IMG/VR virus record: IMGVR_UViG_3300035698_005843
Coordinates: 1-10,945 of that record
Length of the DNA: 10,945 bases
Source of the DNA: a virus
Direction: 5' to 3' (one strand)
Below the pieces are notes generated by a model, which saw nothing but the letters and a program-made list of their open reading frames with translations, was not told where the DNA came from and did not search any database. The translations under genes and the position numbers were made by a program. Positions 1-10,945 of the stretch are shown here, one piece after another (position 1 is the stretch's first letter; each line of letters opens with the position of its first letter).

Positions 1-127
1 CAGCCAGACCCGGAACCAGTTCCGGATCCGGCTCCGGTTCCAGATCCGGTTGAGGAAAAGCCGGATCTTATTAAGAAAGCAAACGAAGCCGCTGCCCGCC
101 TGGAAAAGGCTAATGTTGACATGGCAG
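1..127. repeat. Terminal direct repeat, copy 1 (identical to 10819-10945). Indicates circular closure or terminal redundancy of a 10,818-bp genome.
   Basis: Base-by-base comparison: 1-127 (cagccagacccgg...gttgacatggcag) equals the last 127 bases of the window. Confidence 0.95.
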
Positions 128-291
128 CATTGATCCAAAAACAGGAACAACTGCAAGTTGAAAAGACACTTGGAGGGGAAGCCCACGCAGGCACGCTACA
201 CAAGACCAAAGAGGAGAAAAATGTGGATAATGCTAAAGAGTTCCTTCGAGGCACTGGGTACGAAGATGAAATTTTTGAGCAAGAAGTGTAA
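1..291 (+). CDS. 3' part of the wrap-around ORF (full gene 10786..10818 + 1..291, 107 aa). Helical and charged. Putative scaffolding-like protein just upstream of the capsid genes.
   Basis: Open frame 1 from base 1 to the TAA at 289-291. Translation: ...ALIQKQEQLQVEKTLGGEAHAGTLHKTKEEKNVDNAKEFLRGTGYEDEIFEQEV. The position between the portal block and the capsid genes is typical for scaffold proteins. The function is inferred only. Confidence 0.45.
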   Translation, partial: QPDPEPVPDPAPVPDPVEEKPDLIKKANEAAARLEKANVDMAALIQKQEQLQVEKTLGGEAHAGTLHKTKEEKNVDNAKEFLRGTGYEDEIFEQEV

Positions 292-376
292 GAAATGCGG
301 CAAGCTCCGGAAATTCCTGGCAGGATCTGAACGAGACAAAAAACAGATCTGCGGGGAATGCTGGCACTGGAAATAA
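266..376 (+). CDS. 36-aa zinc-ribbon mini-protein (MKFLSKKCKKCGKLRKFLAGSERDKKQICGECWHWK), CxxC-x17-CxxC.
   Basis: Internal ATG of the 158..376 ORF. The upstream part of that ORF overlaps the scaffold-like frame and starts at a TTG. Paralogous in pattern to the C-terminus of 10568..10789. Confidence 0.5.
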   Translation: MKFLSKKCKKCGKLRKFLAGSERDKKQICGECWHWK

Positions 377-381
377 CAAGT

Positions 382-394
382 TTTAAATAGTAGG
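382..394 (+). promoter_or_regulatory. TTTAAATAGTAGG motif (TATA-box-like) in the 47-nt gap before the capsid gene block.
   Basis: An exact 13-nt copy also occurs at 6620-6632. Both sit in the only short intergenic gaps. TTTAAATA fits the archaeal TATA consensus (about TTTAWATA). Confidence 0.4.
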
Positions 395-423
395 CTACCC
401 AAAAAGTATCTTGGTGATTGAAT

Positions 424-825
424 ATGGCTAATGAAGCGGTTATAATCGAATTATTTAATGGTGGCAAACCTGCGGATTTCACATGCGCAGACGGCACAAC
501 TATTCTAAAGGGTACATTGCTGGAGCTTACTTCTCCACGCACAGTTATTGCAAATACAAATGATAATGCTCCTGTCGTCGGTATAGCAGCAGCTGAAAAA
601 GTTGCAAACGATGGCTCTGTCACAATTGCGGCATATCAAGATGGAGTTTTCGACATGCTGACTGATAGCGGAATAGATGCAGTCGGCGCATTGATGGCAA
701 ACTCAGCCACAGAAAATACGATACAGGGTGCAGATGCTACTGATGTAATACAGGGTTCAGTAATTGGTAAAGTTCTTGAAACCTGTACAAATGGTGGCAC
801 ACATGCGGTAAGGGTGAATCTCTAA
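424..825 (+). CDS. Putative head decoration protein (DUF2190-like pattern), 133 aa.
   Basis: ATG at 424, preceded by GGTGA at 413-417. The ORF-track start at 418 is a TTG. The protein is small and Gly/Val/Ala-rich, apparently beta-rich (..VVGIAAAEKVANDGSVTIAAYQDGVFDM..GALMAN..VIGKVLE..). It lies immediately upstream of the major capsid gene, the usual place for this family. Confidence 0.55.
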   Translation: MANEAVIIELFNGGKPADFTCADGTTILKGTLLELTSPRTVIANTNDNAPVVGIAAAEKVANDGSVTIAAYQDGVFDMLTDSGIDAVGALMANSATENTIQGADATDVIQGSVIGKVLETCTNGGTHAVRVNL

Positions 826-826
826 A

Positions 827-1675
827 ATGGCAGATTCCACAGGCGAAGCAGATTTAAGAGCAGAAAATTTTTCGAGTATTGTAAAAGGTTTTGCATTACA
901 AGAGTATAAGATGAAACAGCTGTGCATGATTGAAAGTTCAAGTGCATGGACTGAAACATACTATCAAGAAACAGCAGCCGATCTCACAGCAGGCGGTAAC
1001 AGAGATGTCGAAGGTGTATCAAGACTAGCTAATTTCCCCTACGGAGAAGTTACCTGGACAAAAGTTTCCGCTAGCAATATAAAGCATGCAATGGAAGGCG
1101 TACTGTCATGGGAAGATGTGAAAACCAATAACATTCCCATGATCGCACGGACATTACTAAGGATCGCACGCGCAGTTGCAAAGTCAATAGATGGCGTAAT
1201 TGCCGCTAAGATAGTTTCCGATGCTGGCAATACCCAAGCTGCAAATGCAACATGGGATAATGCTATCATAGCAAATCGGGATCCCATTCAGGACATCCTC
1301 AATGCGAAATCGCTCATTTCCATTGACAACTACAATCCTGATAAAAACTCCTTCCTTCTTGTCCACCCCACAGGGCTCTCGCATCTGCTCGGCAATCCCA
1401 ACATTCGGAATGCTGGTCAATTCTACACAGATGCAGTCACAAGAAACGGCAAAGTCGGTCAACTATTGGGCTTGACAGTCATAAGCTCAAATTCAGTTAC
1501 CGATGGTGGTGCTCAGATAGTAATCGCTAGAGAAGCCCTCACCTGGAAATCAGTTGTCGGCCTCACTACGAAAACTATTGAGGATCCAGGGATCAAATAT
1601 ACTATTCGATCCTTTGAAGTCGGCCAGATCCAGGTATCAAACCCGGATGCAATTTGCAAAATAACAGGTGTATAA
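827..1675 (+). CDS. Major capsid protein, HK97-fold type, 282 aa.
   Basis: Size, position after the scaffold-like and decoration-like genes, and sequence character typical of the Phage_capsid family (..NIPMIARTLLRIARAVAKSIDGVI.., ..FLLVHPTGLSHLL.., ..LLGLTVISSNSV..AQIVIAREAL..). Confidence 0.8.
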   Translation: MADSTGEADLRAENFSSIVKGFALQEYKMKQLCMIESSSAWTETYYQETAADLTAGGNRDVEGVSRLANFPYGEVTWTKVSASNIKHAMEGVLSWEDVKTNNIPMIARTLLRIARAVAKSIDGVIAAKIVSDAGNTQAANATWDNAIIANRDPIQDILNAKSLISIDNYNPDKNSFLLVHPTGLSHLLGNPNIRNAGQFYTDAVTRNGKVGQLLGLTVISSNSVTDGGAQIVIAREALTWKSVVGLTTKTIEDPGIKYTIRSFEVGQIQVSNPDAICKITGV

Positions 1676-1822
1676 ATGGCAAACGCACCACTTTTATACA
1701 ATGGGAGTGCAACAGATACAGCAGCTATCACCGCCGCACTGGGTACAAAAGACCCAGTAGATATTTTCATTATTCCCAATGCAGGCGGCCATGGAGTTGC
1801 AATATTCGAACAGGGGGCATAA
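1676..1822 (+). CDS. 48-aa hypothetical protein (MANAPLLYNGSATDTAAITAALGTKDPVDIFIIPNAGGHGVAIFEQGA).
   Basis: The ATG directly follows the capsid gene stop (TAAATG). The ORF fills an otherwise empty gap and is below the ORF-track length cut-off. Confidence 0.45.
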   Translation: MANAPLLYNGSATDTAAITAALGTKDPVDIFIIPNAGGHGVAIFEQGA

Positions 1823-1823
1823 A

Positions 1824-1964
1824 ATGAGCAAAGCAAATCGAAGATTAATGTATGACCAATTGGTAGCAGCTGATAAACTTTATCAGGATGATGGCGCACT
1901 CGTCAGAGAGTTCGGCATCCCCAAACCAAAATTGGCACAAAAGGTTGATAAAGTTGGCAAGTGA
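1824..1964 (+). CDS. 46-aa hypothetical protein (MSKANRRLMYDQLVAADKLYQDDGALVREFGIPKPKLAQKVDKVGK).
   Basis: Internal ATG of the 1779..1964 ORF, one base after the previous stop. The sequence looks like a natural protein. Confidence 0.5.
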   Translation: MSKANRRLMYDQLVAADKLYQDDGALVREFGIPKPKLAQKVDKVGK

Positions 1965-2097
1965 TGTAGTTCAATCCTTAACAGTGAAACAGTTAAGGAC
2001 TGGTACATATGTAAGTGGAGCCGCAACAGATAGTACAGGCTACATCATCATAAAAGATGAAGGTGGCACAGATAGAAAAGTTATGATTCAAGCGTGA
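1954..2097 (+). CDS. About 47-aa hypothetical protein, start uncertain (TTG at 1954 proposed; ORF envelope 1888..2097).
   Basis: The C-terminal part (..VVQSLTVKQLRTGTYVSGAATDSTGYIIIKDEGGTDRKVMIQA) is the only open frame here. The 1888 ATG would overlap 1824..1964 by 77 nt and gives an odd Ser-rich N-terminus. AAGG lies 9-10 nt upstream of the TTG at 1954. Confidence 0.35.
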   Translation: MASDVVQSLTVKQLRTGTYVSGAATDSTGYIIIKDEGGTDRKVMIQA

Positions 2098-2107
2098 GAA
2101 ACAGAAA

Positions 2108-2452
2108 ATGGCAGCAGATGTAATCAAAGCACTAGAATGTAAAGAATTAAAAATTAATTGTGATGGTTCTCAAATTGCATTTGATTGCAGAACCGAAGCA
2201 TCCTCAGGCCGAGCAGCATTTTTTTATTCTAATGTAAGCGGAGCTTCAGCTCAAGTTGTTTCAATACATCAAGATCATGTTACGGCAGCAATTCCAGTTT
2301 TACAACTCAGGCAAGATGATGAGAGCGAAGGATTCATTGCTTTTTCAGGTTCTGACCGTGGGGTCATAGCAGCTGCAACAGCTTCCTCAAAATCTGTTCG
2401 AGTAGAATTGGGTGGAGAAATATATAGATTAGCATTATATGTAGACGCGTAA
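2108..2452 (+). CDS. 114-aa hypothetical protein, probably structural.
   Basis: Clean ORF in the capsid/fibre gene block. No recognisable motif. Confidence 0.55.
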   Translation: MAADVIKALECKELKINCDGSQIAFDCRTEASSGRAAFFYSNVSGASAQVVSIHQDHVTAAIPVLQLRQDDESEGFIAFSGSDRGVIAAATASSKSVRVELGGEIYRLALYVDA

Positions 2453-2460
2453 TATACAAA

Positions 2461-3201
2461 ATGGTATCACTCAATAGTGCGGCAAAGCAGTTAAAAACAT
2501 CTTCTTCTAGACAGAAACCAACCGCACCAGGCGCGGCAGGTTACGACAATGCCCGAGAAAATATAGATACTCATATAAAGACTAAAGCGATTTCCTCAAA
2601 AGAACTGGAAATCGCCTCAATCAATGATGTTGTCAGGTTCGGTGGCGGATCTACATCATCTCAAGCCGCCACCGAGGTTTCCATTTGGACAGCTTCCGCT
2701 GTTAATACTACAACTGGAACCATCCGCCTTTATTGTGATAATACAGGCAATGTAGGAATAGGAAACAATGCAACCCCTACATTGATGTTAGATGTCAATC
2801 AGAAATCTGGCATATCCTCTACGGGTGCATTCTGTATAAAATTACTGAATGGCACCGGAGCAAACTCAGTTGAGGGCCAGCTTGCAGCAGTTTACACTGC
2901 CACCGCTGTCGATGAAGTATACAAAACAGCCGCAGCCAATGATTTGGGAGTAATTGGGGTAGTGCTAGAATCCGGTATTGCAGCTGGAGCACCAACCTGG
3001 ATAGTAGTCAGTGGACTAACAAATGTATTAATAGATTCAGGCGGATGCGTCAGGGGAGATAGACTAGTGAGCAGTGCAACAGCAGGCAGCGCAATTGTCA
3101 GCAACACACCAGCTGTTGCTGTACATTTCCAAGAAATAGGCCATGCAGTCGCCTCACAAATAGGCGCAGGCCTGGCCCGAACAGTAATTCATTTATTGTA
3201 A
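2461..3201 (+). CDS. Putative fibre or receptor-binding protein, 246 aa.
   Basis: Contains GNVGIGNNATPTLMLDV, which resembles the N-VGIG-T-P---LDV motif common in phage tail-fibre proteins. It is Ser/Thr/Ala/Gly-rich. The C-terminal about 100 aa shows a DUF2190-like pattern similar to the 424..825 product. Confidence 0.5.
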   Translation: MVSLNSAAKQLKTSSSRQKPTAPGAAGYDNARENIDTHIKTKAISSKELEIASINDVVRFGGGSTSSQAATEVSIWTASAVNTTTGTIRLYCDNTGNVGIGNNATPTLMLDVNQKSGISSTGAFCIKLLNGTGANSVEGQLAAVYTATAVDEVYKTAAANDLGVIGVVLESGIAAGAPTWIVVSGLTNVLIDSGGCVRGDRLVSSATAGSAIVSNTPAVAVHFQEIGHAVASQIGAGLARTVIHLL

Positions 3202-3209
3202 AATTCACA

Positions 3210-4004
3210 ATGGTTCAACAACGCAAAGTTGCAACGCGTAGTGGGGGTGTTGCAGAAAAAACAGAGAAAATCATAAATTGCATGCAGCATTATCCGGAAG
3301 GCTGCACGCCTCAAATGATTGCCCTCGCATCGTCGATAAATGTCAATACAGTCAAGTCTCTAATTCCCAAAATCCCGGAAATTAGGAAAATGATGCGCGG
3401 CTACTATAAAGTTGTTGAAAGGGGGGACGGTGCCTTTTATCCCCCACTGAAAAACTGGAACTTCCACAACTGCATTTTGTCATTCCAAACCCAAGAACCC
3501 CACAACAAACACCGCCTCGAATGTATCCAAGAGTACGGCCTGTTTTCCCTAAAATTCCAGGAAAACAAGCATGGTGTAGTGACGTGTCGTGTGTGTACCG
3601 AGTACCCCCTCAATGTGACGAGCATAGAATTGGTGTGTGTGTTGTTGAGGGAGATGTATTGGTATTATCTAACCCCCGACAAGATCACCATCCAAACCAT
3701 CGAATTCAATCATGACTACAGCAATCTCCGCCTTGACGGGCTTCAATGTGTTACAGTCGACTCCCTCGTTGAACAATTCAAAGTATACCAAAAACGCCAG
3801 GGGATGCGTATAGAGCACAAGACAAAGATACCTTTCGCCGCCGCTGACATTATCGAGATGCTCAAGAATAACCCGGAGAGCTTGGAGACAAACATGAAGC
3901 TCTCCGCCCAAAGACAAGAAATAGAGAAGCTGACACAGGCCACGACCAACAACACGGCGATCCTGTTGAAGCTAATAGATAAACAAACGGAGGCACTACA
4001 ATGA
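3210..4004 (+). CDS. 264-aa protein with an N-terminal winged-helix-like region and a C-terminal coiled coil. Candidate replication initiator or regulator.
   Basis: The N-terminus (..PEGCTPQMIALASSINVNTVKSLIPKIPEIRKMMRGYYKVV) looks like a wHTH. The C-terminus (..LETNMKLSAQRQEIEKLTQATTNNTAILLKLIDKQTEALQ) looks like a coiled coil. It is the largest non-structural ORF. The function is inferred. Confidence 0.6.
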   Translation: MVQQRKVATRSGGVAEKTEKIINCMQHYPEGCTPQMIALASSINVNTVKSLIPKIPEIRKMMRGYYKVVERGDGAFYPPLKNWNFHNCILSFQTQEPHNKHRLECIQEYGLFSLKFQENKHGVVTCRVCTEYPLNVTSIELVCVLLREMYWYYLTPDKITIQTIEFNHDYSNLRLDGLQCVTVDSLVEQFKVYQKRQGMRIEHKTKIPFAAADIIEMLKNNPESLETNMKLSAQRQEIEKLTQATTNNTAILLKLIDKQTEALQ

Positions 4005-4114
4005 AAAAAGCATTAATAGAACAATACTTTTTTGAATCTTACGGGGAATGGTATCCTAAGTACACAAATGATGCACCAGAATGGACAGTGTTTGTACAGA
4101 GGTTACTAAAATGA
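4001..4114 (+). CDS. 37-aa hypothetical protein (MKKALIEQYFFESYGEWYPKYTNDAPEWTVFVQRLLK).
   Basis: ATGA overlaps at both ends (4001-4004 and 4111-4114) link it exactly to its neighbours. Confidence 0.45.
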   Translation: MKKALIEQYFFESYGEWYPKYTNDAPEWTVFVQRLLK

Positions 4115-4281
4115 AACAAGACTGCAGCAATTGTATGCATGGCGATATAGCTAAAACAGATTTTCCATGTGATCGTTGCATAAGGAAACCAAACGAATTA
4201 GATAGATGGGATGCAAGAGAGAGATGCCAGGCATGTAATCAACCTAAGCCAGTGATTCAGGGTGTGGGGGTTATAGAATGA
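4111..4281 (+). CDS. 56-aa Cys-rich zinc-finger protein (three CxxC pairs).
   Basis: MKQDCSNCMHGDIAKTDFPCDRCIRKPNELDRWDARERCQACNQPKPVIQGVGVIE. The ATG at 4111 overlaps the upstream stop. The ORF-track start at 4081 would overlap the 37-aa ORF. Confidence 0.55.
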   Translation: MKQDCSNCMHGDIAKTDFPCDRCIRKPNELDRWDARERCQACNQPKPVIQGVGVIE

Positions 4282-4406
4282 TCCCCCACACGCAAGAGGA
4301 ATATGACGAGATGCAGGAGGCAGACATAACATTCAAACAACTACAAAATGACAGTCGAAAAGCTACAAAGAGTGCTATGGCGCCTGAGGCGCTACAGCAT
4401 AGGTAA
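4278..4406 (+). CDS. Possible 42-aa ORF (MIPHTQEEYDEMQEADITFKQLQND...). Weak call.
   Basis: ATGA overlap with the previous stop, but the last 59 nt overlap 4348..4566. It fills an otherwise unexplained 66-nt gap. Confidence 0.25.
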   Translation: MIPHTQEEYDEMQEADITFKQLQNDSRKATKSAMAPEALQHR

Positions 4407-4566
4407 CAACCATCCATATAATAGCGACCTAAAGAAAGCGATTATGTATGAATGCGGGACAAGCCCGCAAACATTCAGAGATAATCGTAAGGCGCTACGC
4501 GCCCTTGGCTGGATCAAACCTTATAATCGCATAAGGATAACATTGACAGACGAGGATCTTCAGTGA
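4348..4566 (+). CDS. 72-aa helix-turn-helix DNA-binding protein.
   Basis: ..LKKAIMYECGTSPQTFRDNRKALRALGWIKPY.. has the look of an HTH recognition unit. It is the last gene before the non-coding island. Confidence 0.55.
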   Translation: MTVEKLQRVLWRLRRYSIGNNHPYNSDLKKAIMYECGTSPQTFRDNRKALRALGWIKPYNRIRITLTDEDLQ

Positions 4567-4575
4567 CAAAACAGC

Positions 4576-4581
4576 TATAAT
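4576..4581 (+). promoter_or_regulatory. Perfect TATAAT hexamer 9 nt after the stop of the HTH gene. Possible start signal for transcription of the non-coding island.
   Basis: gcTATAATgcacc. There is no properly spaced -35: TTGACA at 4543-4548 is 27 nt away and GTGACA at 4563-4568 is 7 nt away. Confidence 0.25.
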
Positions 4582-4589
4582 GCACCAGG

Positions 4590-5000
4590 CCGCCCGCCGT
4601 GAAAGACGGCGTCCGAGTCCTAAGATCGATTACGATCTTACACCTCAGGTCATAACGATGACCGATGGTGCCGGACATTTCGTCCAGATGGGCACCTCAG
4701 GACGAAATTGGAGCGGAAAAGCTAGAACGTTGGGGATGCGACTACGACGCACACTAAGCAGGCGACTACAGCTTAGTAACCCCAACAACCCAGCTTTACC
4801 AAAGCTCCATGCGGACGCCGTCTTTCACGGGATCTCAACTGTGCATCTTACTGTTCGCCTGTGGGCTCACAGCCCCGGTCGGCTGACGCCTCCCTCCCCG
4901 GCGCGGCTCCTAACGTCGCCGCCCTGCGGGCGGTATCCATGTCGTTGTGTATGTATAGCGGATGTGAGGTTGATTGCGTGGGTGGTGTGTGTACCCCTTG
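4590..5000 (+). ncRNA. Candidate structured non-coding RNA or leader of unknown class. The alternative is a DNA-level pac/cos/ori element. The boundaries are approximate.
   Basis: It is the only long non-coding stretch and is GC-rich. Many nested perfect helices are present (listed in the findings). The 161-aa ORF over it has no SD and a low-complexity Arg/Pro/Ser-rich translation. Both minus-strand frames are open across its 3' half, which fits GC-rich non-coding sequence. The strand was chosen from gene orientation and the upstream TATAAT only. Confidence 0.45.
4597..4830. repeat. Perfect 19-bp inverted repeat (arms 4597-4615 and 4812-4830) enclosing 196 nt.
   Basis: CCGTGAAAGACGGCGTCCG versus CGGACGCCGTCTTTCACGG. 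All 19 positions were checked as Watson-Crick complements. Confidence 0.95.
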
Positions 5001-5022
5001 AAAGATTTTTATCAGAAAAATT

Positions 5023-5028
5023 AGGAGG
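5023..5028 (+). promoter_or_regulatory. Strong Shine-Dalgarno (AGGAGG) for the 5035 ORF.
   Basis: AGGAGG lies 6 nt upstream of the ATG at 5035. Confidence 0.7.
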
Positions 5029-5034
5029 AAAACA

Positions 5035-5205
5035 ATGGAACCAACAAGAGACGACTGGGTATTGACCCGGGAAGAAGCAAGCAGCCAGGAAATGCAGCAT
5101 AGAATCGCGATGGAATGCGCCCAGGCTGTATTTGAAATGTGCGAATCGAAGATCAAGAGATTCCCCAAACCAAAAGACGACGATGACCCAGGAGACACCG
5201 TTTAA
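5035..5205 (+). CDS. 56-aa acidic protein upstream of, and overlapping, the terminase start. Possible small packaging subunit or regulator.
   Basis: It has the best SD in the window. MEPTRDDWVLTREEASSQEMQHRIAMECAQAVFEMCESKIKRFPKPKDDDDPGDTV. It ends at the TAA at 5203-5205, 23 nt past the proposed terL ATG. It is below the ORF-track length cut-off. Confidence 0.55.
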   Translation: MEPTRDDWVLTREEASSQEMQHRIAMECAQAVFEMCESKIKRFPKPKDDDDPGDTV

Positions 5206-6442
5206 GTGGGACAAATGGCAGCGGGAACTACTGGAAACTGATGGCGACATCACGATCCGGTCCGGGCGCCAGGTAGGAAAGAGTGAAGTCATTAGCGAGA
5301 AGGCTGTACAGTTCGCCCTCAAAAATGACAACACCACCATAATGATAATAGCAGCTAGCCAGCGGCAATCTAGCTTGTTATTTGAGAAGGTTCGGGCTAA
5401 GTTGGACATGGAAGGCGACATCTACGCCGACCAACCAACCCTAACCAAGATTGACTTACTGAATGGCAGCAGGATCTACAGTCTACCAGCTGGCCGTACT
5501 GGTTACTTTATCAGGGGCTTCACAATTGACTTGCTCATTTGTGACGAAGCCGCATATATCCCTGAGGAAGTCTGGAAAGCGGTAATTCCGATGATCGCCG
5601 TCAGTAAGAAAACTAGGGGCATGGGTGACATAATTTTACTAAGCACTCCGTTTGGCAAAGGCGGCTATTACTACAGCTCTTTCACTGATCCTGATTTCAA
5701 ATCATTTCATGTCAGCAGCGAAGATTGCCGGAGGATCCCAAAGGCTTTCTTACATAAAGAAAAACGCCGACTGACAAAAGCCGAATACAGGCAGGAATAT
5801 CTTGGAGAGTTCACTGACGAATGGAATCAATTCTTCCCGACTATACTTATCAAGAAGTGTATGACATTCATTGAATGGGATAAAGACAAAGACGGCCTAC
5901 CCGGTGCCGCGTACTACCTGGGCGAAGATATAGCAAGATACGGAGGGGATGATAATGGATTTGTGTTTGTGGAAATGGCGAAGAAACATCTCAAAGTCGT
6001 CAAAGTCGCGGAATCTAATAGGGTCAGTACAACTGATACTATCGGTAGGACAGTGGAGTATGACAAATACTGGCAATTTAAGAGAATATTCATTGATGAT
6101 GGCGGTTTGGGCGGATCAGTCACAGATGTATTACAGGAAAAGCTTGGCCGTCGTGTTATTGGATTAAACAACTCAAGCAAACGCCTCAAGATAGAAGGCG
6201 AAGAAAAAAAGAAAGGAATACTAAAGGAGGATATGTACAGCAATGCCTTAATGCTGATGGAAACTGACAAAATCGAGATCATAAGCGATCTGCGACTGCT
6301 CAGGAGCCTAAAAAGCATGACATTTGAATACACTACCTACGGCAATATTAAGATCTTTGGACCCGACAGCCACCTCGCGGAGGCTTTCGTGCGCGCATGC
6401 TGGTGTATCAAAGACAAAGGCCTCGATCTGTACATATATTAA
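5183..6442 (+). CDS. terL: Terminase large subunit (ATPase + RNase H-like nuclease), 419 aa.
   Basis: Walker A-like SGRQVGKSE. Walker B LLICDEAAYI. STPFGKGG motif. Acidic nuclease motifs GEDIARYGGDDNGF, IFIDDGGLGG and DSHLAEAF. The start is set at the ATG at 5183; the ORF-track start at 5132 is a TTG inside the 56-aa ORF. Confidence 0.9.
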   Translation: MTQETPFKWDKWQRELLETDGDITIRSGRQVGKSEVISEKAVQFALKNDNTTIMIIAASQRQSSLLFEKVRAKLDMEGDIYADQPTLTKIDLLNGSRIYSLPAGRTGYFIRGFTIDLLICDEAAYIPEEVWKAVIPMIAVSKKTRGMGDIILLSTPFGKGGYYYSSFTDPDFKSFHVSSEDCRRIPKAFLHKEKRRLTKAEYRQEYLGEFTDEWNQFFPTILIKKCMTFIEWDKDKDGLPGAAYYLGEDIARYGGDDNGFVFVEMAKKHLKVVKVAESNRVSTTDTIGRTVEYDKYWQFKRIFIDDGGLGGSVTDVLQEKLGRRVIGLNNSSKRLKIEGEEKKKGILKEDMYSNALMLMETDKIEIISDLRLLRSLKSMTFEYTTYGNIKIFGPDSHLAEAFVRACWCIKDKGLDLYIY

Positions 6443-6447: not shown

Positions 6448-6624
6448 ATGAGCGGAATCAGATATAATGTAAAACAACGGCAAATAGTGCGGCGAATCAA
6501 CGATCTAAAGCAATTACAGCAAAAAGCCTACAATAGATGGCATTTCTACGACATAAAGATAGGCGCACTCAAATCTTTAGTTGAAAGGGAGGGGTTTGAA
6601 CAACGCATAAATGACAATATTTAA
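6448..6624 (+). CDS. 58-aa basic hypothetical protein (MSGIRYNVKQRQIVRRINDLKQLQQKAYNRWHFYDIKIGALKSLVEREGFEQRINDNI).
   Basis: The internal ATG of ORF 6397..6624 lies 5 nt after the terL stop. The longer version would overlap terL. Confidence 0.5.
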   Translation: MSGIRYNVKQRQIVRRINDLKQLQQKAYNRWHFYDIKIGALKSLVEREGFEQRINDNI

Positions 6625-6632
6625 ATAGTAGG
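6620..6632 (+). promoter_or_regulatory. Second exact copy of TTTAAATAGTAGG, 18 nt upstream of the ATG at 6651.
   Basis: Identical to 382-394. It spans the stop codon of the 58-aa ORF and the 26-nt gap. Confidence 0.4.
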
Positions 6633-6650
6633 ATTGGTAGAAAAAGGAGA

Positions 6651-7022
6651 ATGGCAAATGCAGGACAATTCGCACAAGATGCAGATATACTGCTTAGAGT
6701 TGGAACTAACGCCAGCGCTACCGTCAAAGCCGCTGGCTGGTTCGACACTATAATTCTGGATGTAGAAGCTATCGTAAACGTCCTGACAAGAACAGATTGG
6801 AGCACATTGGACTCAGCAACCACGCTAAACACCACAGTTCGCGGGATCCTGATTGATACAGGCGCCAGCCTTGCAGCAATACAGGGCATAATGTGGGATA
6901 TGTCCGGCTTCACAAGCCGAACAGAAGCCGAGGACATGGTGAATGTCCTCAGGGATACGGCATTAAGAAACATGTCAATTCTTAGAGATATGAAGCAACA
7001 GACCTTCATAAAGGAGGCATAA
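6651..7022 (+). CDS. 123-aa, mostly helical protein. Possible head-tail adaptor or head completion protein.
   Basis: Size, helical character and location at the head of the portal-containing block. There is no diagnostic motif, so the function is a guess. Confidence 0.6.
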   Translation: MANAGQFAQDADILLRVGTNASATVKAAGWFDTIILDVEAIVNVLTRTDWSTLDSATTLNTTVRGILIDTGASLAAIQGIMWDMSGFTSRTEAEDMVNVLRDTALRNMSILRDMKQQTFIKEA

Positions 7023-7477
7023 TGGTATTTGAGCATGATTATGAAAACTACCCTGAATTAACCAATAAGCAACTGCAGGAATTCCATTTCAGTTCGCCAC
7101 ACCCCCAAATTGTGGCGGACTTTTCTGCAACTGTCATTAAGGTTCATGACGGCGACACGATCACCCTAAGGACAGACTTCCGCGATTTCGATTTCCCTCT
7201 CAGATTTCTAGATATTGACGCCCCTGAAATGAATGCAGGCGGTGAAGCAGCCAGGGATTGGCTCAAATCCAAAATTCTCGGTCATGAGATCTCCGTTTCA
7301 ATTGACACAGACAACAGAGTCGGAAGGTATGGCAGGCTGCTAGGTAGAATATTCTTTAATGGAATCAACCTCGGCATGGAAATGTTATACCTGGGGCTTG
7401 TCAAGCCTTTCGGCATAAAAAAGGAGGGCCAAATACCTGATCTAGGTCAGATATTCATGATAAAACAATGGCTTTAA
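7022..7477 (+). CDS. Staphylococcal-nuclease-like (thermonuclease/SNase) protein, 151 aa.
   Basis: VIKVHDGDTITLRTD...PLRFLDIDAPEM...GGEAARDWLKSKILGHEISV...RVGRYGRLLGRIFFNGINLGMEMLYLGLVKPF matches the SNase pattern (DGDT ... R-hydrophobic-x-G-I-D-A-P-E ... Y-G-R-x-L ... G-L-A/V). Confidence 0.85.
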   Translation: MVFEHDYENYPELTNKQLQEFHFSSPHPQIVADFSATVIKVHDGDTITLRTDFRDFDFPLRFLDIDAPEMNAGGEAARDWLKSKILGHEISVSIDTDNRVGRYGRLLGRIFFNGINLGMEMLYLGLVKPFGIKKEGQIPDLGQIFMIKQWL

Positions 7478-7851
7478 ACTTCGGCTCGTCAGGATTGTTC
7501 CCAAGCACAGGGCTGCTTAATGATGATGGGTTGCTTAAAGAAAGATGGGATCAGGAAGGGAGCTCCCTCAAAGAATGGACTACAGTTGATTCCGCAGGAT
7601 CTCACAATCTATATACAGTACCCGCTAAAAAGAAAGTATTCATTACACAATTAACTTGTTCATCAAGTGTAGCGCGGTTTTGTTCATTGCAAAGGGGTAC
7701 AACGATTATAGTGACATTGCAATTAATTGGCCAAGATTCACATAGTTATACTTTTGGTTCGCCAGTAGAGTTCACAGCTGGCCAAATAGTTAATGTCAAT
7801 CAGCAAGCTGATCTGACATCATTTGTAGCAGGATGGGAAGAAAATGCATAA
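7468..7851 (+). CDS. 127-aa hypothetical protein, probably beta-rich and a virion component.
   Basis: Clean ORF overlapping its neighbours by 10 and 8 nt. No motif recognised (..LYTVPAKKKVFITQLTCSS..). Confidence 0.55.
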   Translation: MALNFGSSGLFPSTGLLNDDGLLKERWDQEGSSLKEWTTVDSAGSHNLYTVPAKKKVFITQLTCSSSVARFCSLQRGTTIIVTLQLIGQDSHSYTFGSPVEFTAGQIVNVNQQADLTSFVAGWEENA

Positions 7852-8053
7852 ATATATTGATGTTAAAAAGGTTGATGGCAAAATCATATTTGAATACGAA
7901 TTCAATAATGAGCCGGAGTTTTTCCATTTCGATATAGATACATTCACCCATGATAAACTAGCTTATGCCCTGGGTGCAAAGATGAAACTATCAGCCGATG
8001 ATATCGTGCTGACAGAAAAATTCAATCAAATAAAAACAGCGGTGACCAAATAA
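7844..8053 (+). CDS. 69-aa hypothetical protein.
   Basis: Clean ORF coupled to the portal gene by a TAATG overlap. Confidence 0.5.
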   Translation: MHKYIDVKKVDGKIIFEYEFNNEPEFFHFDIDTFTHDKLAYALGAKMKLSADDIVLTEKFNQIKTAVTK

Positions 8054-9144
8054 TGCCAGATCTAAGAATAGATGCAGCAGTAGAAGCAGGCGTAAGAAAT
8101 GTCATTACTGATTATAGCGTCGACAGCCAGGACACGGAAGGCGCAGGCACAGTAAAAGAAACTACATACCAAAATGTCAACTGGTCGCAGGATCTCGGCT
8201 ACTATAAATCCATCCCGGAATTTAAGACTGCAGTTGATGCAAAAGCGACCTGGACAATGGGTGCAGGATTTGAATCTGATGAAGTCACCACAATGTTACT
8301 TGGTAACATTAAAGGCAACGGAAAAGATTCTTTCAATACAATTCTAAAAAATATGATCAAAGTCAAGACCATTAGCCAAGATTCCTTCGCTGAAGTTATC
8401 CGTGACAAAGATAATGTTCTTGTCAACATAAAACCCCTCGATCCTGCATCTATGGTTATAGTGCAGGATCAACGCGGGAGAATCAAACGCTACGAACAAG
8501 TCAGCAAGACCAAAATTCCCAACCTAAAATTTAAACCAGAATCAATATTCCACCTCAGCCATGAGAGAATAGCTGACGAGATCCACGGAGTCAGGATCAT
8601 TGAATCATTGAAATGGCTGATCCTGGCAAGAAATGAAGCTATGTCGGACTGGAAACGTGTTCTGCATAGAAACATAGATCCGCTTTGGATCATCCACATG
8701 GATACAGACGATACTACAGAGATTGCAGGATTCAAAAAGAAATATGATTCCGCCCGGGCCAATGGCGAAAACATGTATGTCCCTAAAGGCGTAGTTGTTC
8801 CCGAACAGGTCACAACTGCCGCTAATGCTACACTCAACCCACTTAACTGGATCAATCAGCTGAATGATTATTTTTTCCAGGCTGTCAATGTTCCACAGAT
8901 CATAATCGGCAATGCTAAAGAATTCACAGACGCCAGCGGAAAAATAGTCTATCTTTCCTATGAGCAAAGCGTAAAGGCCGAACAGTTGTACATTGAGGAG
9001 CAGGTACTTGGTCAGCTAAATCTTGAGATTGCGCTTACATTCCCCGCAAGCTTGCAAAATGAATTAATCAGCGACAGAGATCAGGAATCAGATCTTCAGG
9101 CCTCACAACCTGATGATACAACAGCAGAATTGGAGGGAGCCTAA
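8053..9144 (+). CDS. Portal protein, 363 aa.
   Basis: Size, acidic C-terminal tail (..DRDQESDLQASQPDDTTAELEGA) and general resemblance to HK97-family portals (..IFHLSHERIADEIHGVRIIESL..NIDPLWIIH..MYVPKGV..). A genome with a TerL and an HK97-type capsid protein needs a portal, and this is the only candidate. Confidence 0.7.
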   Translation: MPDLRIDAAVEAGVRNVITDYSVDSQDTEGAGTVKETTYQNVNWSQDLGYYKSIPEFKTAVDAKATWTMGAGFESDEVTTMLLGNIKGNGKDSFNTILKNMIKVKTISQDSFAEVIRDKDNVLVNIKPLDPASMVIVQDQRGRIKRYEQVSKTKIPNLKFKPESIFHLSHERIADEIHGVRIIESLKWLILARNEAMSDWKRVLHRNIDPLWIIHMDTDDTTEIAGFKKKYDSARANGENMYVPKGVVVPEQVTTAANATLNPLNWINQLNDYFFQAVNVPQIIIGNAKEFTDASGKIVYLSYEQSVKAEQLYIEEQVLGQLNLEIALTFPASLQNELISDRDQESDLQASQPDDTTAELEGA

Positions 9145-9335
9145 TGCAAGTAAAAATCAACAATGATAGGAAAGTCGACATTAAGATCATACTTTTCGGA
9201 CTAGCATGCTTAACAACTTTGGAAATAGTTGCACTGTGTAATGGCATCAATGGAACAATGTTCACAATGGTAATTGCAATCATTGCCGGAATAACTGGCT
9301 TTGTAGTTCCAACACCAAATCTAATTAAGAAATAA
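9144..9335 (+). CDS. 63-aa membrane protein with two predicted hydrophobic helices. Holin-like or virion membrane-active protein.
   Basis: IKIILFGLACLTTLEIVALC and MFTMVIAIIAGITGFVV are hydrophobic segments. TAATG overlaps at both ends. Confidence 0.5.
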   Translation: MQVKINNDRKVDIKIILFGLACLTTLEIVALCNGINGTMFTMVIAIIAGITGFVVPTPNLIKK

Positions 9336-10555
9336 TGGTAGTCGTAAATCGCGGTAATTTGAGGCCAAGTATAAGGCGGAAACTCCCCGGCGGAGAAAAA
9401 AGAACAACAAGTGCAATTAGGCGTAGCTCTAAATCTAGCACGAAAACAAGCTCACGATCCACCCCAAGAACAAAAGTGACAGATCACCGCCAACCTCAGG
9501 AGATTGCAGCAACGCGAACGCCTATAAATAGGAGTACTGTCAGAGCAGCCACCGAACAGGAAAAGTTCGCTGGTACTCCCCAGGGCCAGGTAATCAAAGG
9601 ATTCCAGCAGGGATTGACAGGCAATTTTCCTACTGAGGATTTACAAACATTACCTCTGTCCTATCAGTTTGGTCTTATAGGTGGGGCTCTCACATTACCT
9701 TTGTCATTTTCAGCACAGTCTGCATCAGGTATGTCAGCTTTAGGTCAATCCACAAGAATTGGGGCCCCTAATACAGTGGATTTTCTAGGTCAGGTTTCTG
9801 GCCCTAGTAGATCAATTCCAAGAATAGCCCTCAATACGAAAACCGCAAAATTGACAAATGATATATTAAAAAAAACATTTAGTACCGGAGCATTGGCAGC
9901 AGCTGGTGGTTGGGCAGGAGCAGTATTTTTAGGCAATTGGGGACAAGCAGAAGCACCTGAACCATTAGGAATAGCATTGAATACAATTTTGATACCTGCA
10001 GCAAGAGATTCTGGTAACTGGACTGCAGTTGATGAAGCCATTGAAATGCAAAATGAAATAAATAATTTACCCTGGTGGGAACAAGTTGGCCTTTGGTCAC
10101 CGATCAGTCCAATTATAGGAATCCCAAATAAAATTAAGGGATCTATTGCCGGCACAAAAGTGGTTTCGAAAGCAATTGAGGATTTAAAGTCACAACAAGC
10201 TACAGGCGAATCAGACGATGATAAATGGACAAGAATAAGAGCAGAACAGGCTGCTCAAGAAAAGGCAGCTGTTGATTATTATAATCAACAGAGAAAAATC
10301 CAGTTTGATTATGAACAAGCATCCCGACAAGCAGCAGCTACAGCCAGAGCAGCTGATGATGCTTCAGAACGTAGACAAGAAATAAAAGCTATGCAAGAAG
10401 ATGCAGAATATTGGGCAGAGCAACGAGAAAAAGAAAGAAAACGAGAAGCGGAAGATAGGCTAGCAATAGCAGAATTTTGGATTGCATATCGTAAAAGAAT
10501 GCAAGAAATAGCAGACGACAACAGGCCGTCTAATTTAAACTTCGGCCTATTGTAG
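9335..10555 (+). CDS. 406-aa tripartite protein: basic Ser/Thr/Arg/Lys-rich N-terminus, Gly/Ala-rich hydrophobic middle, and a long charged coiled-coil C-terminus. Candidate internal, ejection or tail-associated protein.
   Basis: Composition read from the translation: RRKLPGGEKRTTSAIRRSSKSSTKTSSRSTPRTK; TGALAAAGGWAGAVFLGNWG; RAEQAAQEKAA...EQREKERKREAEDRLA. The function is inferred. Confidence 0.6.
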   Translation: MVVVNRGNLRPSIRRKLPGGEKRTTSAIRRSSKSSTKTSSRSTPRTKVTDHRQPQEIAATRTPINRSTVRAATEQEKFAGTPQGQVIKGFQQGLTGNFPTEDLQTLPLSYQFGLIGGALTLPLSFSAQSASGMSALGQSTRIGAPNTVDFLGQVSGPSRSIPRIALNTKTAKLTNDILKKTFSTGALAAAGGWAGAVFLGNWGQAEAPEPLGIALNTILIPAARDSGNWTAVDEAIEMQNEINNLPWWEQVGLWSPISPIIGIPNKIKGSIAGTKVVSKAIEDLKSQQATGESDDDKWTRIRAEQAAQEKAAVDYYNQQRKIQFDYEQASRQAAATARAADDASERRQEIKAMQEDAEYWAEQREKERKREAEDRLAIAEFWIAYRKRMQEIADDNRPSNLNFGLL

Positions 10556-10567
10556 GAGGAGAGAAAA

Positions 10568-10789
10568 ATGAGCGAATTAACCAAGTACCAGACTATAGAA
10601 TTACTTAAAGAATTGATAGACCGAGAAGTCGGCGCACCAGTTTGTGAAACTGTTGTAGATGAAGAAGTGCCAGCCGATGGCCAGTATGCAATCAAGTGCT
10701 CAAAATGCGGCAAAGATTCAACAGTACCATTCAAACCACGCGACACAAACCATAATCTACTGTGCCGCGATTGTTGGAGGACAAAATGA
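10568..10789 (+). CDS. 73-aa protein with a C-terminal zinc ribbon (CSKC-x18-CRDCW).
   Basis: Good SD (GGAGGAG at 10555-10561). ..AIKCSKCGKDSTVPFKPRDTNHNLLCRDCWRTK. The stop overlaps the start of the scaffold-like ORF (ATGA). Confidence 0.6.
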   Translation: MSELTKYQTIELLKELIDREVGAPVCETVVDEEVPADGQYAIKCSKCGKDSTVPFKPRDTNHNLLCRDCWRTK

Positions 10790-10945
10790 CAGAAGAAGAC
10801 GAACAGGAAGAACCAACGCAGCCAGACCCGGAACCAGTTCCGGATCCGGCTCCGGTTCCAGATCCGGTTGAGGAAAAGCCGGATCTTATTAAGAAAGCAA
10901 ACGAAGCCGCTGCCCGCCTGGAAAAGGCTAATGTTGACATGGCAG
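10786..10945 (+). CDS. 5' part of the wrap-around ORF (continues at position 1). Acidic, Pro-rich N-terminus (MTEEDEQEEPTQPDPEPVPDPAPVPDPVEEKPDLIKKANEAAARLEKANVDMA...). Putative scaffolding-like protein.
   Basis: The ATG at 10786 overlaps the upstream stop (ATGA). The frame is continuous with frame 1 at window position 1, because 10819-10786=33. Confidence 0.6.
   Translation, partial: MTEEDEQEEPTQPDPEPVPDPAPVPDPVEEKPDLIKKANEAAARLEKANVDMA
10819..10945. repeat. Terminal direct repeat, copy 2 (identical to 1-127).
   Basis: Same comparison as for copy 1. It lies inside the ORF that starts at 10786. Confidence 0.95.

Follow-up and report, generated by a model that had tools for sequence, protein, structure and literature searches.

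Genome organisation and completeness

The window, by which we mean the whole 10,945-nt stretch of DNA analysed, carries about 26 plausible ORFs, around half of them shorter than 75 aa, all on the plus strand and with a coding density of 95%; the earlier note had counted roughly 27 genes, with the same share of short ones. Positions 1..127 are the left copy of a terminal overlap and match positions 10819-10945 exactly, which gives a unit of 10,818 bp. As 127 nt is a typical assembler k-mer overlap, it indicates a circular or concatemeric template and does not show the physical ends. At least seven related IMG/VR contigs, from different samples and with a gene order in common, close on themselves independently as units of 10,865-11,674 bp, and the contigs of 110 relatives cluster at 10.6-12.1 kb. 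As had been proposed from its sequence, and as the overlap and the self-closing relatives bear out, the window represents one family member's genome in full.

The assembler-made overlap and two related contigs of 21.4 and 25.2 kb might raise the suspicion that the contig derives from a larger virus, as a fragment or by misassembly, or that it is a remnant, either defective or domesticated. However, the two long contigs are head-to-tail repeats of one ~12-kb gene order, and relatives beyond ~12.5 kb are seen only in this form: all 58 homologs of the 264-aa protein described below lie on contigs of at most 12.5 kb, and the best 120 of 1,023 capsid-protein homolog clusters are all on contigs of at most 12.2 kb. 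With the hallmark genes intact at this coding density, and closure recurring at 10.9-11.7 kb, this explanation, raised in part by the earlier note (fragment or misassembly), is effectively refuted.

Head and packaging genes

Four head and packaging proteins are the element's own: a capsid protein, a cement protein, a portal and a large terminase of the ATPase and nuclease type. The capsid protein, portal and TerL recognised earlier all score above curated Pfam thresholds. The HK97-fold major capsid protein (282 aa, 827..1675) matches PF25209 with 46.3 bits (cutoff 27) and phrog_1650 at 5e-23; the large terminase subunit (TerL, 5183..6442, in an ORF that opens with TTG 5132 and has its likely start at ATG 5183) matches PF03237 with 47.3 bits (cutoff 22) and phrog_2 at 2e-44; and the portal protein (363 aa, 8053..9144) matches PF06074 with 25.7 bits (cutoff 23.9) and phrog_9232 at 8e-14. 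The best cultured match of TerL is the haloarchaeal Halogranum tailed virus 1 (HGTV-1; 32% identity, 2e-48), followed by bacterial phages at 2e-34 or weaker, and the weak cultured-virus matches of the capsid protein and portal are to bacterial phages (Clostridium, Bacillus). The capsid cement or decoration-type protein (424..825; ORF opening with TTG 418, likely start ATG 424), also suspected previously, reaches 19.4 bits against PF09956 in the window, below the cutoff of 24, and 28.4 bits in the homolog of the relative L011. Its gene occurs in 25 of the 27 large relatives, in some as a tandem duplicate.

Two further assignments of the earlier note fared differently, the fibre-like protein being upheld by gene architecture (see below) and the scaffold-like protein staying a candidate by position and composition. 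The latter (107 aa) is encoded across the contig junction (10786-10818, then 1-291), upstream of the cement and capsid genes; it is acidic and Pro-rich, then helical, ends in a conserved GTG(F/Y)E(D/S) motif, and gave no match in a PHROGs search. The corresponding segment was detected in 21 of the 27 large relatives, where the full gene codes for ~85-119 aa. A 56-aa helical protein (5035..5205), whose gene overlaps the TerL start, is small-terminase-like by position, and in relatives its slot is occupied by a related small gene with the motif RDD(W/Y)ELTLKEL. Finally, a 123-aa helical core protein (6651..7022), present in all 27 relatives, is a head-tail adaptor candidate by position, with sub-threshold adaptor PHROG matches in single members only.

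Putative appendage proteins

The fibre or receptor-binding-type protein (2461..3201) has a weak tail-fibre PHROG match, and its N-terminal ~50 aa are kept across the family, with the remainder replaced in relatives. Receptor-binding-type proteins of the family share a conserved ~50-aa N-terminus and have C-termini varying from 205 to 575 aa, and the variable appendage C-termini of relatives include Beta_helix (pectinesterase-like), Laminin_G_3, CBM_5_12 and F5/8-type-C (discoidin) domains. Upstream, a 114-aa protein (2108..2452) is a candidate modular virion appendage; in the relatives L002 and L004, its homolog forms the N-terminal part of a protein of 313 aa. A 127-aa protein starting with MALNFG (7468..7851) is a candidate spike or fibre anchor; several proteins of relatives (134-567 aa, Beta_helix proteins among them) start with M-x(1-2)-LNFG and, where checked, sit directly after adaptor-like or SNase genes as it does. 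The conserved-anchor, swapped-tip pattern is typical of direct host-receptor recognition, and conserved fibre and spike N-termini with swappable sugar-binding C-termini argue for an adsorption apparatus of the element's own.

A 406-aa all-alpha protein (9335..10555) is a candidate internal, ejection or scaffold-type protein. A basic, disordered N-terminal stretch of ~160 aa gives way to a bundle of helices plus three long ones, and the protein ends in a near-invariant ...PSxLNFG(L/I)(L/I). Its AlphaFold model found non-specific coiled-coil matches only with Foldseek, and the predicted fold is not that of a tube, sheath, nozzle or enzyme.

Small genes, DNA-binding proteins and a structured element

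A staphylococcal-nuclease-like (SNase) nuclease (7022..7477; PF00565, 31.5 bits, cutoff 21; phrog_452, 6e-15) is present in 20 of the 27 relatives. The family-specific 264-aa protein (3210..4004) combines an N-terminal winged helix with an alpha/beta domain and is a candidate replication initiator or transcription regulator. Its invariant polar residues are H86, N87, E165, N167, Y193, Q194, K195, R200, E202 and K204, and neither sequence nor AlphaFold/Foldseek searches recognised a catalytic fold; divergent homologs match archaeal-type winged-helix families, and the best viral fold match of the model is an uncultured archaeal virus protein. It is found in only about a third of the large relatives and is missing from many complete ones, such as L062. 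A 72-aa helix-turn-helix (HTH) protein (4348..4566) is conserved in 17 of the 27, and its gene always adjoins, on the upstream side, a GC-rich structured non-coding element (4575..5010). This element of ~430 nt, with GC of up to 71% per 100 nt, contains a perfect 19-bp stem (4597-4615 with 4812-4830) around ~196 nt of hairpins, has no Rfam match and is a candidate origin, pac site or ncRNA. An ORF of 161 aa at 4580-5065 is not conserved in relatives and was rejected as a gene.

Among the remaining genes, a small Zn-ribbon protein (CxxC...CGxCWxW; 266..376, in ORF 158-376) is conserved in relatives and overlaps the junction-spanning gene in a different frame. Only 1779-1964 of three small overlapping ORFs (48, 61 and 69 aa; 1676..2097) is widely conserved (14 of 27), and three small ORFs at 4001..4406, one coding for a CxxC Zn-finger protein (4081-4281), are window-specific. 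A 69-aa protein (7844..8053) has no detectable conservation. Two hydrophobic helices can be read in a 63-aa membrane protein (9144..9335), for which a holin-like role is speculative, and a treble-clef Zn-finger protein (10568..10789) matches PF23477 with 38.6 bits (cutoff 27). The SNase-like nuclease, the winged-helix and Zn-finger proteins, the structured element and the promoters described below were not mentioned in the earlier note.

Archaeal-type promoters

The chief new finding concerns transcription: to judge by its sequences, the family uses an archaeal BRE+TATA promoter, cGAAAnnTTTAWATA. In 576 kb of dereplicated sequence, 71 such sites lie on the coding strand vs 7 on the opposite strand, and 50 of the 61 sites with a downstream ORF fall 20-40 nt before its ATG, whereas sigma-70-type sites show no enrichment, with 18 observed against an expectation of 19.0. 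Family-wide, cGAAAnnTTTA(A/T)ATA precedes the two best-conserved operon starts, with a GGTGAT ribosome-binding site downstream of it. The motif agrees with the BRE (MRCCGAAAAG) and TATA (TWTATATA) consensus of Methanocaldococcus jannaschii, a consensus from that one archaeon (PMC2602779). In the window, P1 (371..394; TATA box TTTTAAATA at 381-389) lies ~35 nt upstream of ATG 424, P2 (GAAAGATTTTTATC, 4998..5013) ~22 nt upstream of ATG 5035, and P3 (6609..6632; TATA box ATTTAAATA) ~24 nt upstream of ATG 6651, all on the plus strand. P1 and P3 are the two copies of a 24-nt direct repeat (D2), and P2 closes a ~60-nt block conserved across relatives. The three promoters evidently head three co-directional operons read by a host TBP/TFB-type transcription machinery.

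Functions looked for and host domain

Pfam and PHROGs searches with all ORFs of the window brought up no gene for replication, integration, a tail tube or lysis, nor did two AlphaFold models compared by Foldseek reveal such a function. Neither the window nor a family-wide Pfam census, in which 74 clusters represented the proteins of 90 related loci, yielded a polymerase, primase, helicase or integrase, and a lysin, tail tube, tape measure and sheath were likewise not found; in window and family searches nothing could be identified as a DNA conduit, be it a tail tube, a nozzle, a knob or another kind. The census also lacked an HNH endonuclease, maturation protease and Rep-primase module of the kind known from capsid-forming PICIs (cf-PICIs), and neither an integrated copy nor an att site turned up in over 1,000 capsid-protein clusters and in six GTDB hits. 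The earlier statement that these functions are not recognisable therefore agrees with all of these searches, and the hidden replication module or tail genes that it had allowed for did not emerge from profile or structure comparison.

The earlier note did not take up the host domain. Archaea are most likely the hosts of the family, as its promoters indicate; further hints are the HGTV-1 match of TerL, the archaeal-type winged-helix and archaeal-virus fold matches of the 264-aa protein and its homologs, and the bins of family contigs. The missing lysin and polymerase, unremarkable in archaeal viruses, would then be accounted for and not anomalous. GTDB bins with family contigs are archaeal in four of six cases, the others being Bacteroidota and Saccharibacteria, and one family contig was binned in a Parcubacteria MAG. 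Such bacterial bins, together with the Clostridium and Bacillus phage matches of capsid protein and portal, and Shine-Dalgarno sequences compatible with either domain, would suit a minimal phage that is autonomous but has a bacterial host, either an ultra-small one (CPR/Patescibacteria) or another. However, the bin labels disagree (six phyla in two domains), as expected from composition/coverage mis-binning of small free contigs, and the Saccharibacteria-binned contig (L090) itself has three BRE+TATA sites on the coding strand. That promoter is archaeal in type and specific in strand and position, and sigma-70 sites are not enriched; further, a phage of a murein-walled host normally needs an endolysin, and the family-wide Pfam census found none in any member. 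Such a bacterial phage is accordingly improbable.

Comparison with known systems

Mycoplasma virus P1 and Salmonella phage astrithr are protein-primed podoviruses of bacteria; they encode a B-family polymerase of their own, package with a phi29-like ATPase, and have lysis genes as well as recognisable proteins of a tail knob or collar. Unlike them, the window has a TerL whose N-terminal domain is of the T4 terminase type (PF03237); it also has archaeal promoters, is smaller (10.8 kb), and shows no polymerase or recognisable tail knob. The two phages, the smallest cultured tailed ones (11.7 and 11.6 kb), share with it a capsid of the HK97 lineage, packaging at a portal-based vertex, a genome of ~11-12 kb and a predicted ~T=3 capsid (PMC7762592). 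HGTV-1, with the closest cultured TerL, is an archaeal tailed virus with an HK97-type head and portal, and the family's host is probably archaeal too; however, at 143.9 kb it is 13 times larger and, besides replication genes, has a complete contractile tail. The smallest archaeal HK97 virus that we found cited in the literature is Verda V2 (19.5 kb).

The Streptomyces satellite MiniFlayer (17,449 bp), seen by electron microscopy attached to its helper's neck, resembles the family in having a terminase, portal, capsid protein and its own fibre or adsorption module, with neither integrase nor primase (PMC10690885). Scaffold, head-tail adaptor and small capsid are also shared, the family's scaffold and adaptor being candidates and its small capsid a prediction. 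MiniFlayer differs in its bacterial host, in a genome larger by 60%, and in having an HNH endonuclease and a recognisable TerS (PMC10690885); neither the window DNA nor its capsid protein matched it in a phage collection, and no sequence relationship was seen. The cf-PICIs similarly form small HK97-type capsids of their own, package their DNA with their own terminase and portal, and lack tail genes. However, they are integrated bacterial chromosomal islands with integrase, maturation protease, TerS and HNH and without fibres, whereas the family, never seen integrated and with none of these four found, has fibre and spike genes and archaeal promoters. 'Twilight-zone' mini HK97-fold genomes from metagenomes are, like the window, closed (there by DTRs), below 11.6 kb and equipped with an HK97-fold capsid protein, tail genes being rare there, and the present family may be among the 536 capsid-bearing ones (Aguilar et al., bioRxiv 10.1101/2025.06.18.659913). 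Their dominant characterised clade, from the human gut, is ~8.9 kb, temperate (integrase) and RepA-encoding with no portal or terminase (bioRxiv 10.1101/2025.06.18.659913), unlike the present family, which has portal and terminase and neither integrase nor RepA.

Autonomous virus or satellite

The earlier note left two readings, a minimal virus dependent on its host and a satellite. We favour an autonomous minimal archaeal virus, with modest confidence, because of the modular receptor-binding-type proteins and the lack of an integrase and of any integrated copy. A MiniFlayer-like satellite, which would make and fill its own small capsids and obtain tails or cell entry, possibly also replication functions, from a larger co-infecting tailed virus while persisting as a free, non-integrated episome, is possible but rather unlikely. 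Helpers are indeed used in such ways, cf-PICIs and MulchRoom taking helper tails or entry and MiniFlayer riding on the neck, and cf-PICIs release DNA-filled capsids without tails. The size of the genome is close to that of the HK97-type satellites MulchRoom (14.8 kb) and MiniFlayer (17.4 kb), the window and the 74 family clusters yielded no tail tube, nozzle, sheath or tape measure and the clusters no polymerase, primase or helicase, and the gene content (TerL, portal, capsid, scaffold-like, adaptor-like and fibre genes, no integrase or primase) is nearly that of MiniFlayer, a virulent satellite which shows that a helper-dependent element can be so equipped, fibre included (PMC10690885). Against this stand the carbohydrate-binding or -degrading appendage modules on conserved anchors, the failure to find integrase, att site, integrated copy or the cf-PICI-type genes, and a literature in which we found no description of any satellite of a tailed archaeal virus.

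For the autonomous virus, we infer a life cycle in which the DNA would be copied by the host replisome. Initiation would involve small DNA-binding proteins, namely the 72-aa HTH protein, joined in some members by the 264-aa winged-helix protein (both candidate initiators), probably acting at the structured region 4575-5010 and yielding circles or concatemers. TerL, helped by the 56-aa protein encoded upstream, would cut these and pump the DNA via the portal into a capsid of very small size, ~T=3 if the model of PMC7762592 is applied to the genome length. The 123-aa core protein may then close the portal, and the 406-aa helical protein, packaged or portal-associated, may assist assembly or DNA exit. 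Adsorption would rely on short appendages built from the modular fibre and spike proteins (2108-2452, 2461-3201, 7468-7851), presumably binding host surface glycans, and release would proceed without a murein hydrolase, not needed in a host without murein. The lytic lifestyle and the packaging mode, like the virion shape and the T-number, are predictions for the family.

The best explanation of these data is a very large, uncultivated family of miniature HK97-fold (Duplodnaviria) head-tail-type viruses with units of 10.8-12.3 kb. Such miniature capsid-and-terminase viruses are apparently undescribed so far, and we found no description in the literature of archaeal head-tail viruses of 10-12 kb. 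The smallest cultured tailed phage has 11.6 kb; the present genome, at 10.8 kb, is smaller still, in keeping with its earlier placement at the extreme low end for elements that package DNA with a terminase and portal, and it lends itself to the question of the lower size limit of such viruses.

Closure and Size of the Genome

The earlier note had taken the window for a complete genome of 10.8 kb, and this holds: the two ends share an exact 127-nt repeat, leaving a unit of 10,818 bp. An assembler run at k=127 leaves a 127-nt overlap on a circular or concatemeric template; the overlap is of this assembler type and therefore demonstrates closure, not physical ends. The credible genes all lie on the plus strand, to which the window's gene coordinates below refer, with a coding density of ~95%. 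A capsid-protein search of IMG/VR gave 110 contigs of relatives clustering at 10.6-12.1 kb, seven of which are self-closing, with units of 10,865-11,674 bp, and comparative mapping revealed that gene order is conserved across the family. Homologs of the family-specific 264-aa protein (3210-4004) were found on contigs of at most 12.5 kb in 58/58 cases, and those of the capsid protein on contigs of at most 12.2 kb in 120/120 cases listed (the best 120 of 1,023 clusters).

Two larger relatives, L072 (IMGVR_UViG_3300028920_000300; 21.4 kb) and L081 (ERZ23486252 scaffold_2074; 25.2 kb), were considered as bigger genomes or integrated copies and rejected, both being head-to-tail repeats of ~12-kb units with the same gene order. 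The two units of L081 show no difference in the first 7.5 kb compared and diverge thereafter, and those of L072 are ~67-80% identical across shared segments; such dimers are due either to the assembler walking around through variants of the strain or to genuine heterodimers, as concatemers or co-integrates. That the contig might be a fragment or a misassembly, which the earlier note had named as a way for its view to fail, is hardly credible, given that seven relatives close on themselves and that the longer contigs merely repeat the ~12-kb unit.

Head and Packaging Genes

The HK97-type capsid protein, the portal and the large terminase (TerL) recognised in the earlier note each score above the curated Pfam threshold. 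The capsid protein (827-1675) matches PF25209 with 46.3 bits (cutoff 27) and phrog_1650 at 5e-23, and the family capsid profile gives weak matches to solved HK97-fold capsid proteins (E 0.003-0.2). The portal (8053-9144) matches PF06074 with 25.7 bits (cutoff 23.9) and phrog_9232 at 8e-14; the window portal does not reach the cutoff of PF04860, a family recorded in relatives. TerL (5183-6442) matches PF03237 with 47.3 bits (cutoff 22) and phrog_2 at 2e-44, the latter over residues 9-424, nuclease half included, and a PDB profile search retrieved the TerL ATPase 4zni (1.9e-9). TerL-nuclease-like motifs were recognised by eye, and a separate nuclease-domain model gave no match.

Comparative mapping identified a core set of capsid protein, TerL, portal and a 123-aa helical protein (6651-7022) in 27/27 large relatives. 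The cement/decoration-type protein encoded upstream of the capsid gene (424-825) is sub-threshold in the window, the same model reaching 28.4 bits (cutoff 24) in a relative, and is present in 25/27. Tandem diverged copies of it were noticed upstream of the capsid gene in four loci (L041:3336-4250, L060:2687-3503, L069:5331-6147 and L024:3176-4031). A small acidic protein of 107 aa, running from 10786 to 291 across the contig junction and found in 21/27, is a candidate scaffold by position and composition. In the same region, two conserved frames, the scaffold-candidate gene and a small Zn-ribbon ORF, overlap at 158-376 / 121-291. The Zn-ribbon ORF ends in CGxCWxW, and in many relatives its DNA shows recognisable conservation immediately before the first promoter (371-394); ATG 266 is its likely start, with a more extensive overlap or a product of frameshifting as possible alternatives. 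An SNase-type nuclease (7022-7477; 20/27 large relatives) and a treble-clef Zn finger (10568-10789) both exceed curated thresholds, and a 72-aa HTH protein (4348-4566) is present in 17/27. As for the 123-aa core protein, adaptor PHROGs are matched below threshold and in single members only (E 0.022 and 0.097), and the PDB gave no match; its designation as head-tail adaptor is a guess from position.

Promoters and Host Domain

A 24-nt direct repeat (371-394 and 6609-6632) containing TTTAAATA lies just upstream of two core genes, which family-wide are preceded by cGAAAnnTTTA(A/T)ATA and then by a GGTGAT ribosome-binding site. This motif agrees almost exactly with the promoter determined by experiment for Methanocaldococcus jannaschii, in which the BRE MRCCGAAAAG is directly followed by the TATA box TWTATATA (PMC2602779). 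After dereplication to 66 loci (576 kb), 71 BRE+TATA sites were counted on the coding strand vs 7 on the opposite strand, and 50/61 sites with a downstream ORF lie 20-40 nt before its ATG; sigma-70-type sites exhibit no enrichment (18 found vs 19.0 expected). In the window, three such promoters (371-394, 4998-5013 and 6609-6632) head three co-directional operons that together span the genome.

These features, together with the following affinities, make an archaeal host very probable. The closest cultured relative of TerL is that of the haloarchaeal virus HGTV-1 (2e-48), bacterial phages coming next at 2e-34 or weaker, and the best viral fold match of the 264-aa protein, among the matches listed, is a protein of an uncultured archaeal virus. 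Four of the six GTDB bins with family contigs are archaeal. A bacterial host, to which the Bacteroidota, Saccharibacteria and Parcubacteria labels of other bins would point, is improbable: the Saccharibacteria-binned contig bears the same BRE/TATA promoters as the rest of the family, so that we read the bacterial labels as mis-binning, and since labels conflict across two domains, bins are weak host evidence. Free family contigs of ~3-11 kb (L085-L090; protein P0347) also occur in public MAGs from GTDB and NCBI labelled Methanosarcinales, Pacearchaeota, 'archaeon' and the three bacterial groups, one Pacearchaeota-labelled MAG holding two different family members; such contigs are probably contamination by small viral genomes.

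Functions Missing from the Family

The earlier statement that replication, integration, tail-tube and lysis genes are missing was confirmed by Pfam and PHROGs searches of all window ORFs, which detected no polymerase, primase, helicase, Rep, integrase, tube, sheath, tape measure or lysin. Tail components (tube, nozzle, knob, sheath, tape measure) were likewise found by none of Pfam, PHROGs, PDB profiles or Foldseek, and no hidden replication or tail module was recognised by profiles and two AlphaFold models. Proteins of 90 related loci were grouped into 74 clusters, and a Pfam census of the cluster representatives found no integrase or recombinase family. What it recovered was limited to proteins of the head and of packaging, methyltransferases, SNase, Zn fingers, domains that bind sugars and regulators with a winged helix; at Pfam sensitivity, the absence is therefore family-wide. 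Given an archaeal host, the missing murein hydrolase and viral polymerase would be expected.

No integrated copies were found, every GTDB match being a free contig of at most 11.3 kb, and a search for tRNA genes or att sites detected no tRNA, either in the window or among 35 loci. In one relative, L062, the sequence GGTTCGAATCCTGCCGCCGACA at ~8357-8376 (529-548 when counted within the intergenic region 7829-8556) resembles a tRNA T-arm and 3' end and is att-like; ARAGORN found no tRNA gene there, in a family without integrase. In the pan-proteome alignment, a C-5 cytosine DNA methylase, a protein with a Methyltransf_11 domain and one with a CxxCxxCC domain turn up in single members of the family.

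Large Proteins and a Structured Non-Coding Element

AlphaFold models were made for the two largest proteins without an assigned function, of 264 and 406 aa. In that of the 264-aa protein (pLDDT 76.8), a winged helix forms the N-terminus and is joined by an alpha/beta domain in which many polar residues are invariant. Foldseek against PDB and BFVD returned only winged-helix matches and weak, non-significant TBP-like ones (TM ~0.2-0.3) among the 50 listed of ~1,000 per library. An exhaustive profile search gathered 317 representatives, and for the ten most divergent of 150 listed homologs Pfam added winged-helix matches only, several of them archaeal-type; on model and profile evidence, the winged helix is the sole established part. 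The most conserved motif, IEFNxDYxNLRLDG (residues 164-177), coincides with the sole internal segment of pLDDT <50 (167-181) and may, as modelled, be a flexible functional loop. We had considered a Rep_trans initiator, on the assumption that the FKxYQKK...R.EHKTK motif resembles rolling-circle initiators of the pT181 RepC/RepD type; Pfam gave no such match in 14 members (E <= 10) or in the ten divergent ones, the PDB profile search none, and Foldseek (PDB, BFVD) no support. In relatives, the site of the gene is occupied by a 16-member cluster of 111-180 aa proteins (e.g. L034:3847-4386) with no family match.

The model of the 406-aa protein (9335-10555; pLDDT 68.7) shows a basic, disordered N-terminus ahead of long helices. 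As a candidate tape measure, tube or nozzle it was rejected, Foldseek giving only BAR/coiled-coil noise (best E 0.22), and sequence and profile searches of the PDB were empty. Its family C-terminus carries a near-invariant PSxLNFG(L/I)(L/I) (19 unique C-termini). The gene following SNase, which in the window encodes a 127-aa protein (7468-7851), starts with M-x(1-2)-LNFG here and in six unique relatives, and the window protein shares the N-terminal MxLNFG with beta-helix, spike-like proteins. Loci of relatives at which LNFG was noted include L034:7381-9081, L042:587-1900 and L009:2217-3230. The shared LNFG may serve both kinds of protein for docking to the portal or adaptor.

Between the HTH and TerL genes, ~430 nt at 4575-5010 are non-coding, with a GC content of up to 71% vs 44% for the genome. 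The plus strand folds with an MFE of -192.7 kcal/mol (z = -8.2) and the minus strand with z = -6.2, compared with z = +1.1 for a coding control; because both strands fold well, roles as DNA and as RNA are inseparable. A perfect 19-bp long-range stem pairs 4597-4615 with 4812-4830 and encloses ~196 nt. Perfect stems of 21 bp and 20 bp stand at the same position in two relatives (L025 and L062, respectively) with unrelated sequences, and a GC spike is found at this site in every relative examined. A CGCTTCGCTC motif recurs in the HTH-TerL intergenic regions of relatives (the L025, L062 and L015 region set), and L062 has a 51-nt tandem repeat in its element. A 161-aa ORF (4580-5065) was rejected as TerS or another gene, in view of the lack of protein conservation, its odd composition and the structured GC spike. 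Rfam yielded no family match, and at E <= 1 nothing except one chance-level tmRNA match; a search of IMG/VR for close homologs that would allow a covariation test found none. The element is possibly an origin, a packaging (pac) site or a non-coding RNA.

Autonomous Virus or Satellite

The earlier note had left two readings side by side, a minimal tailed virus depending on its host and a capsid-forming element relying on a helper. We lean towards the former, as an autonomous minimal archaeal virus, which has a somewhat better than even chance of being right, on account of its own appendage genes and the lack of an integrase. In the fibre-like gene (2461-3201), the N-terminal ~50 aa are kept family-wide and the remainder is replaced (205-575 aa in relatives), and appendage positions of relatives carry Beta_helix/pectinesterase-like, Laminin_G_3, CBM_5_12 and F5/8-type-C domains. 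A conserved anchor with swapped glycan-binding tips has, judged from these sequences, the look of direct host-receptor recognition. The satellite reading, which we consider rather unlikely, has to accommodate these sugar-binding fibres and spikes as well as the lack of an integrase and of any integrated copy. It draws strength from searches that identified no DNA conduit, and from an adaptor assigned by position only. Moreover, cf-PICIs release filled capsids without tails, and MiniFlayer, a virulent Streptomyces satellite, has almost identical gene content: terminase, portal, capsid protein, scaffold, adaptor and its own fibre, used to ride on its helper, with neither integrase nor primase (PMC10690885).

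For the autonomous virus, we propose that the genome would be copied by the host replisome, with initiation or regulation through the small HTH protein, joined in part of the family by the 264-aa winged-helix protein, both perhaps acting at or near the structured GC-rich element. TerL and the 56-aa protein encoded upstream of it (5035-5205) would take circles or concatemers as packaging substrate and fill a capsid predicted to be ~T=3 by the genome-length model of PMC7762592. The portal would be closed by the 123-aa protein, modular spikes would bind host glycans, and the 406-aa helical protein could serve assembly or DNA exit. A bolder joint reading, to which we give little credence, is a fully autonomous duplodnavirus of ultra-small DPANN-type archaea that lacks a conventional tail, with a ~T=3 HK97-fold capsid, portal and terminase. 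Adsorption would then proceed by short glycan-binding spikes anchored on capsid or portal, and the packaged 406-aa protein would form a conduit on demand, by analogy with the phiX174 H protein, LNFG docking it and the spikes at the same portal/adaptor site. If true, no smaller self-sufficient virus that packages by terminase would be known, and its virion architecture would be new to the realm.

Relation to Known Systems and Significance

Capsids of the tailed-virus type, with portal and terminase, are generally assumed to face a practical minimum in size. Among cultured tailed phages the smallest measure 11.6-11.7 kb, and capsids of T=3 or T=1 have not been characterised for any tailed phage (PMC7762592); the window is smaller than these phages and differs in replication and packaging. 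Its size falls within the 'twilight zone' of the Luque group (<11.6 kb) but outside their characterised clade: the encapsulin-like mini HK97 elements of Aguilar et al. 2025 have an integrase and RepA and neither portal nor terminase, whereas the window has portal and TerL and lacks integrase and RepA. PICIs and cf-PICIs possess an integrase and integrate into the chromosome, neither of which was found in the family; cf-PICIs encode their own capsid and packaging proteins, as the family does, but no adsorption or tail genes, whereas the family adds fibre and spike genes. Unlike phi29-like podoviruses, with their protein-primed B-family polymerase and terminal protein, the window and the family census contain no polymerase family, and Rfam found no match to a phi29-like pRNA in the window.

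The family sequences are already in public databases, and open-access text yielded no literature on this family or on any 10-12-kb archaeal head-tail virus. The combination of size and host would surprise specialists, host, autonomy and virion form being what we infer. If the host is archaeal, head-tail archaeal viruses extend far below 19.5 kb, the smallest that we found cited, and the family may give a first view of the viruses of ultra-small archaea; if it needs a helper, we know of no earlier description of a capsid-forming satellite among archaeal tailed viruses, and it would be the first. Either result would be informative. The compact single-strand, three-promoter layout is attractive for in vitro reconstitution. 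The family, whose units can be as small as 10.8 kb and whose capsid proteins form more than 1,000 clusters from many samples, offers an abundant natural test of how few genes suffice for building, filling and delivering a portal/terminase capsid, and makes the question of the 'minimal tailed virus' testable.
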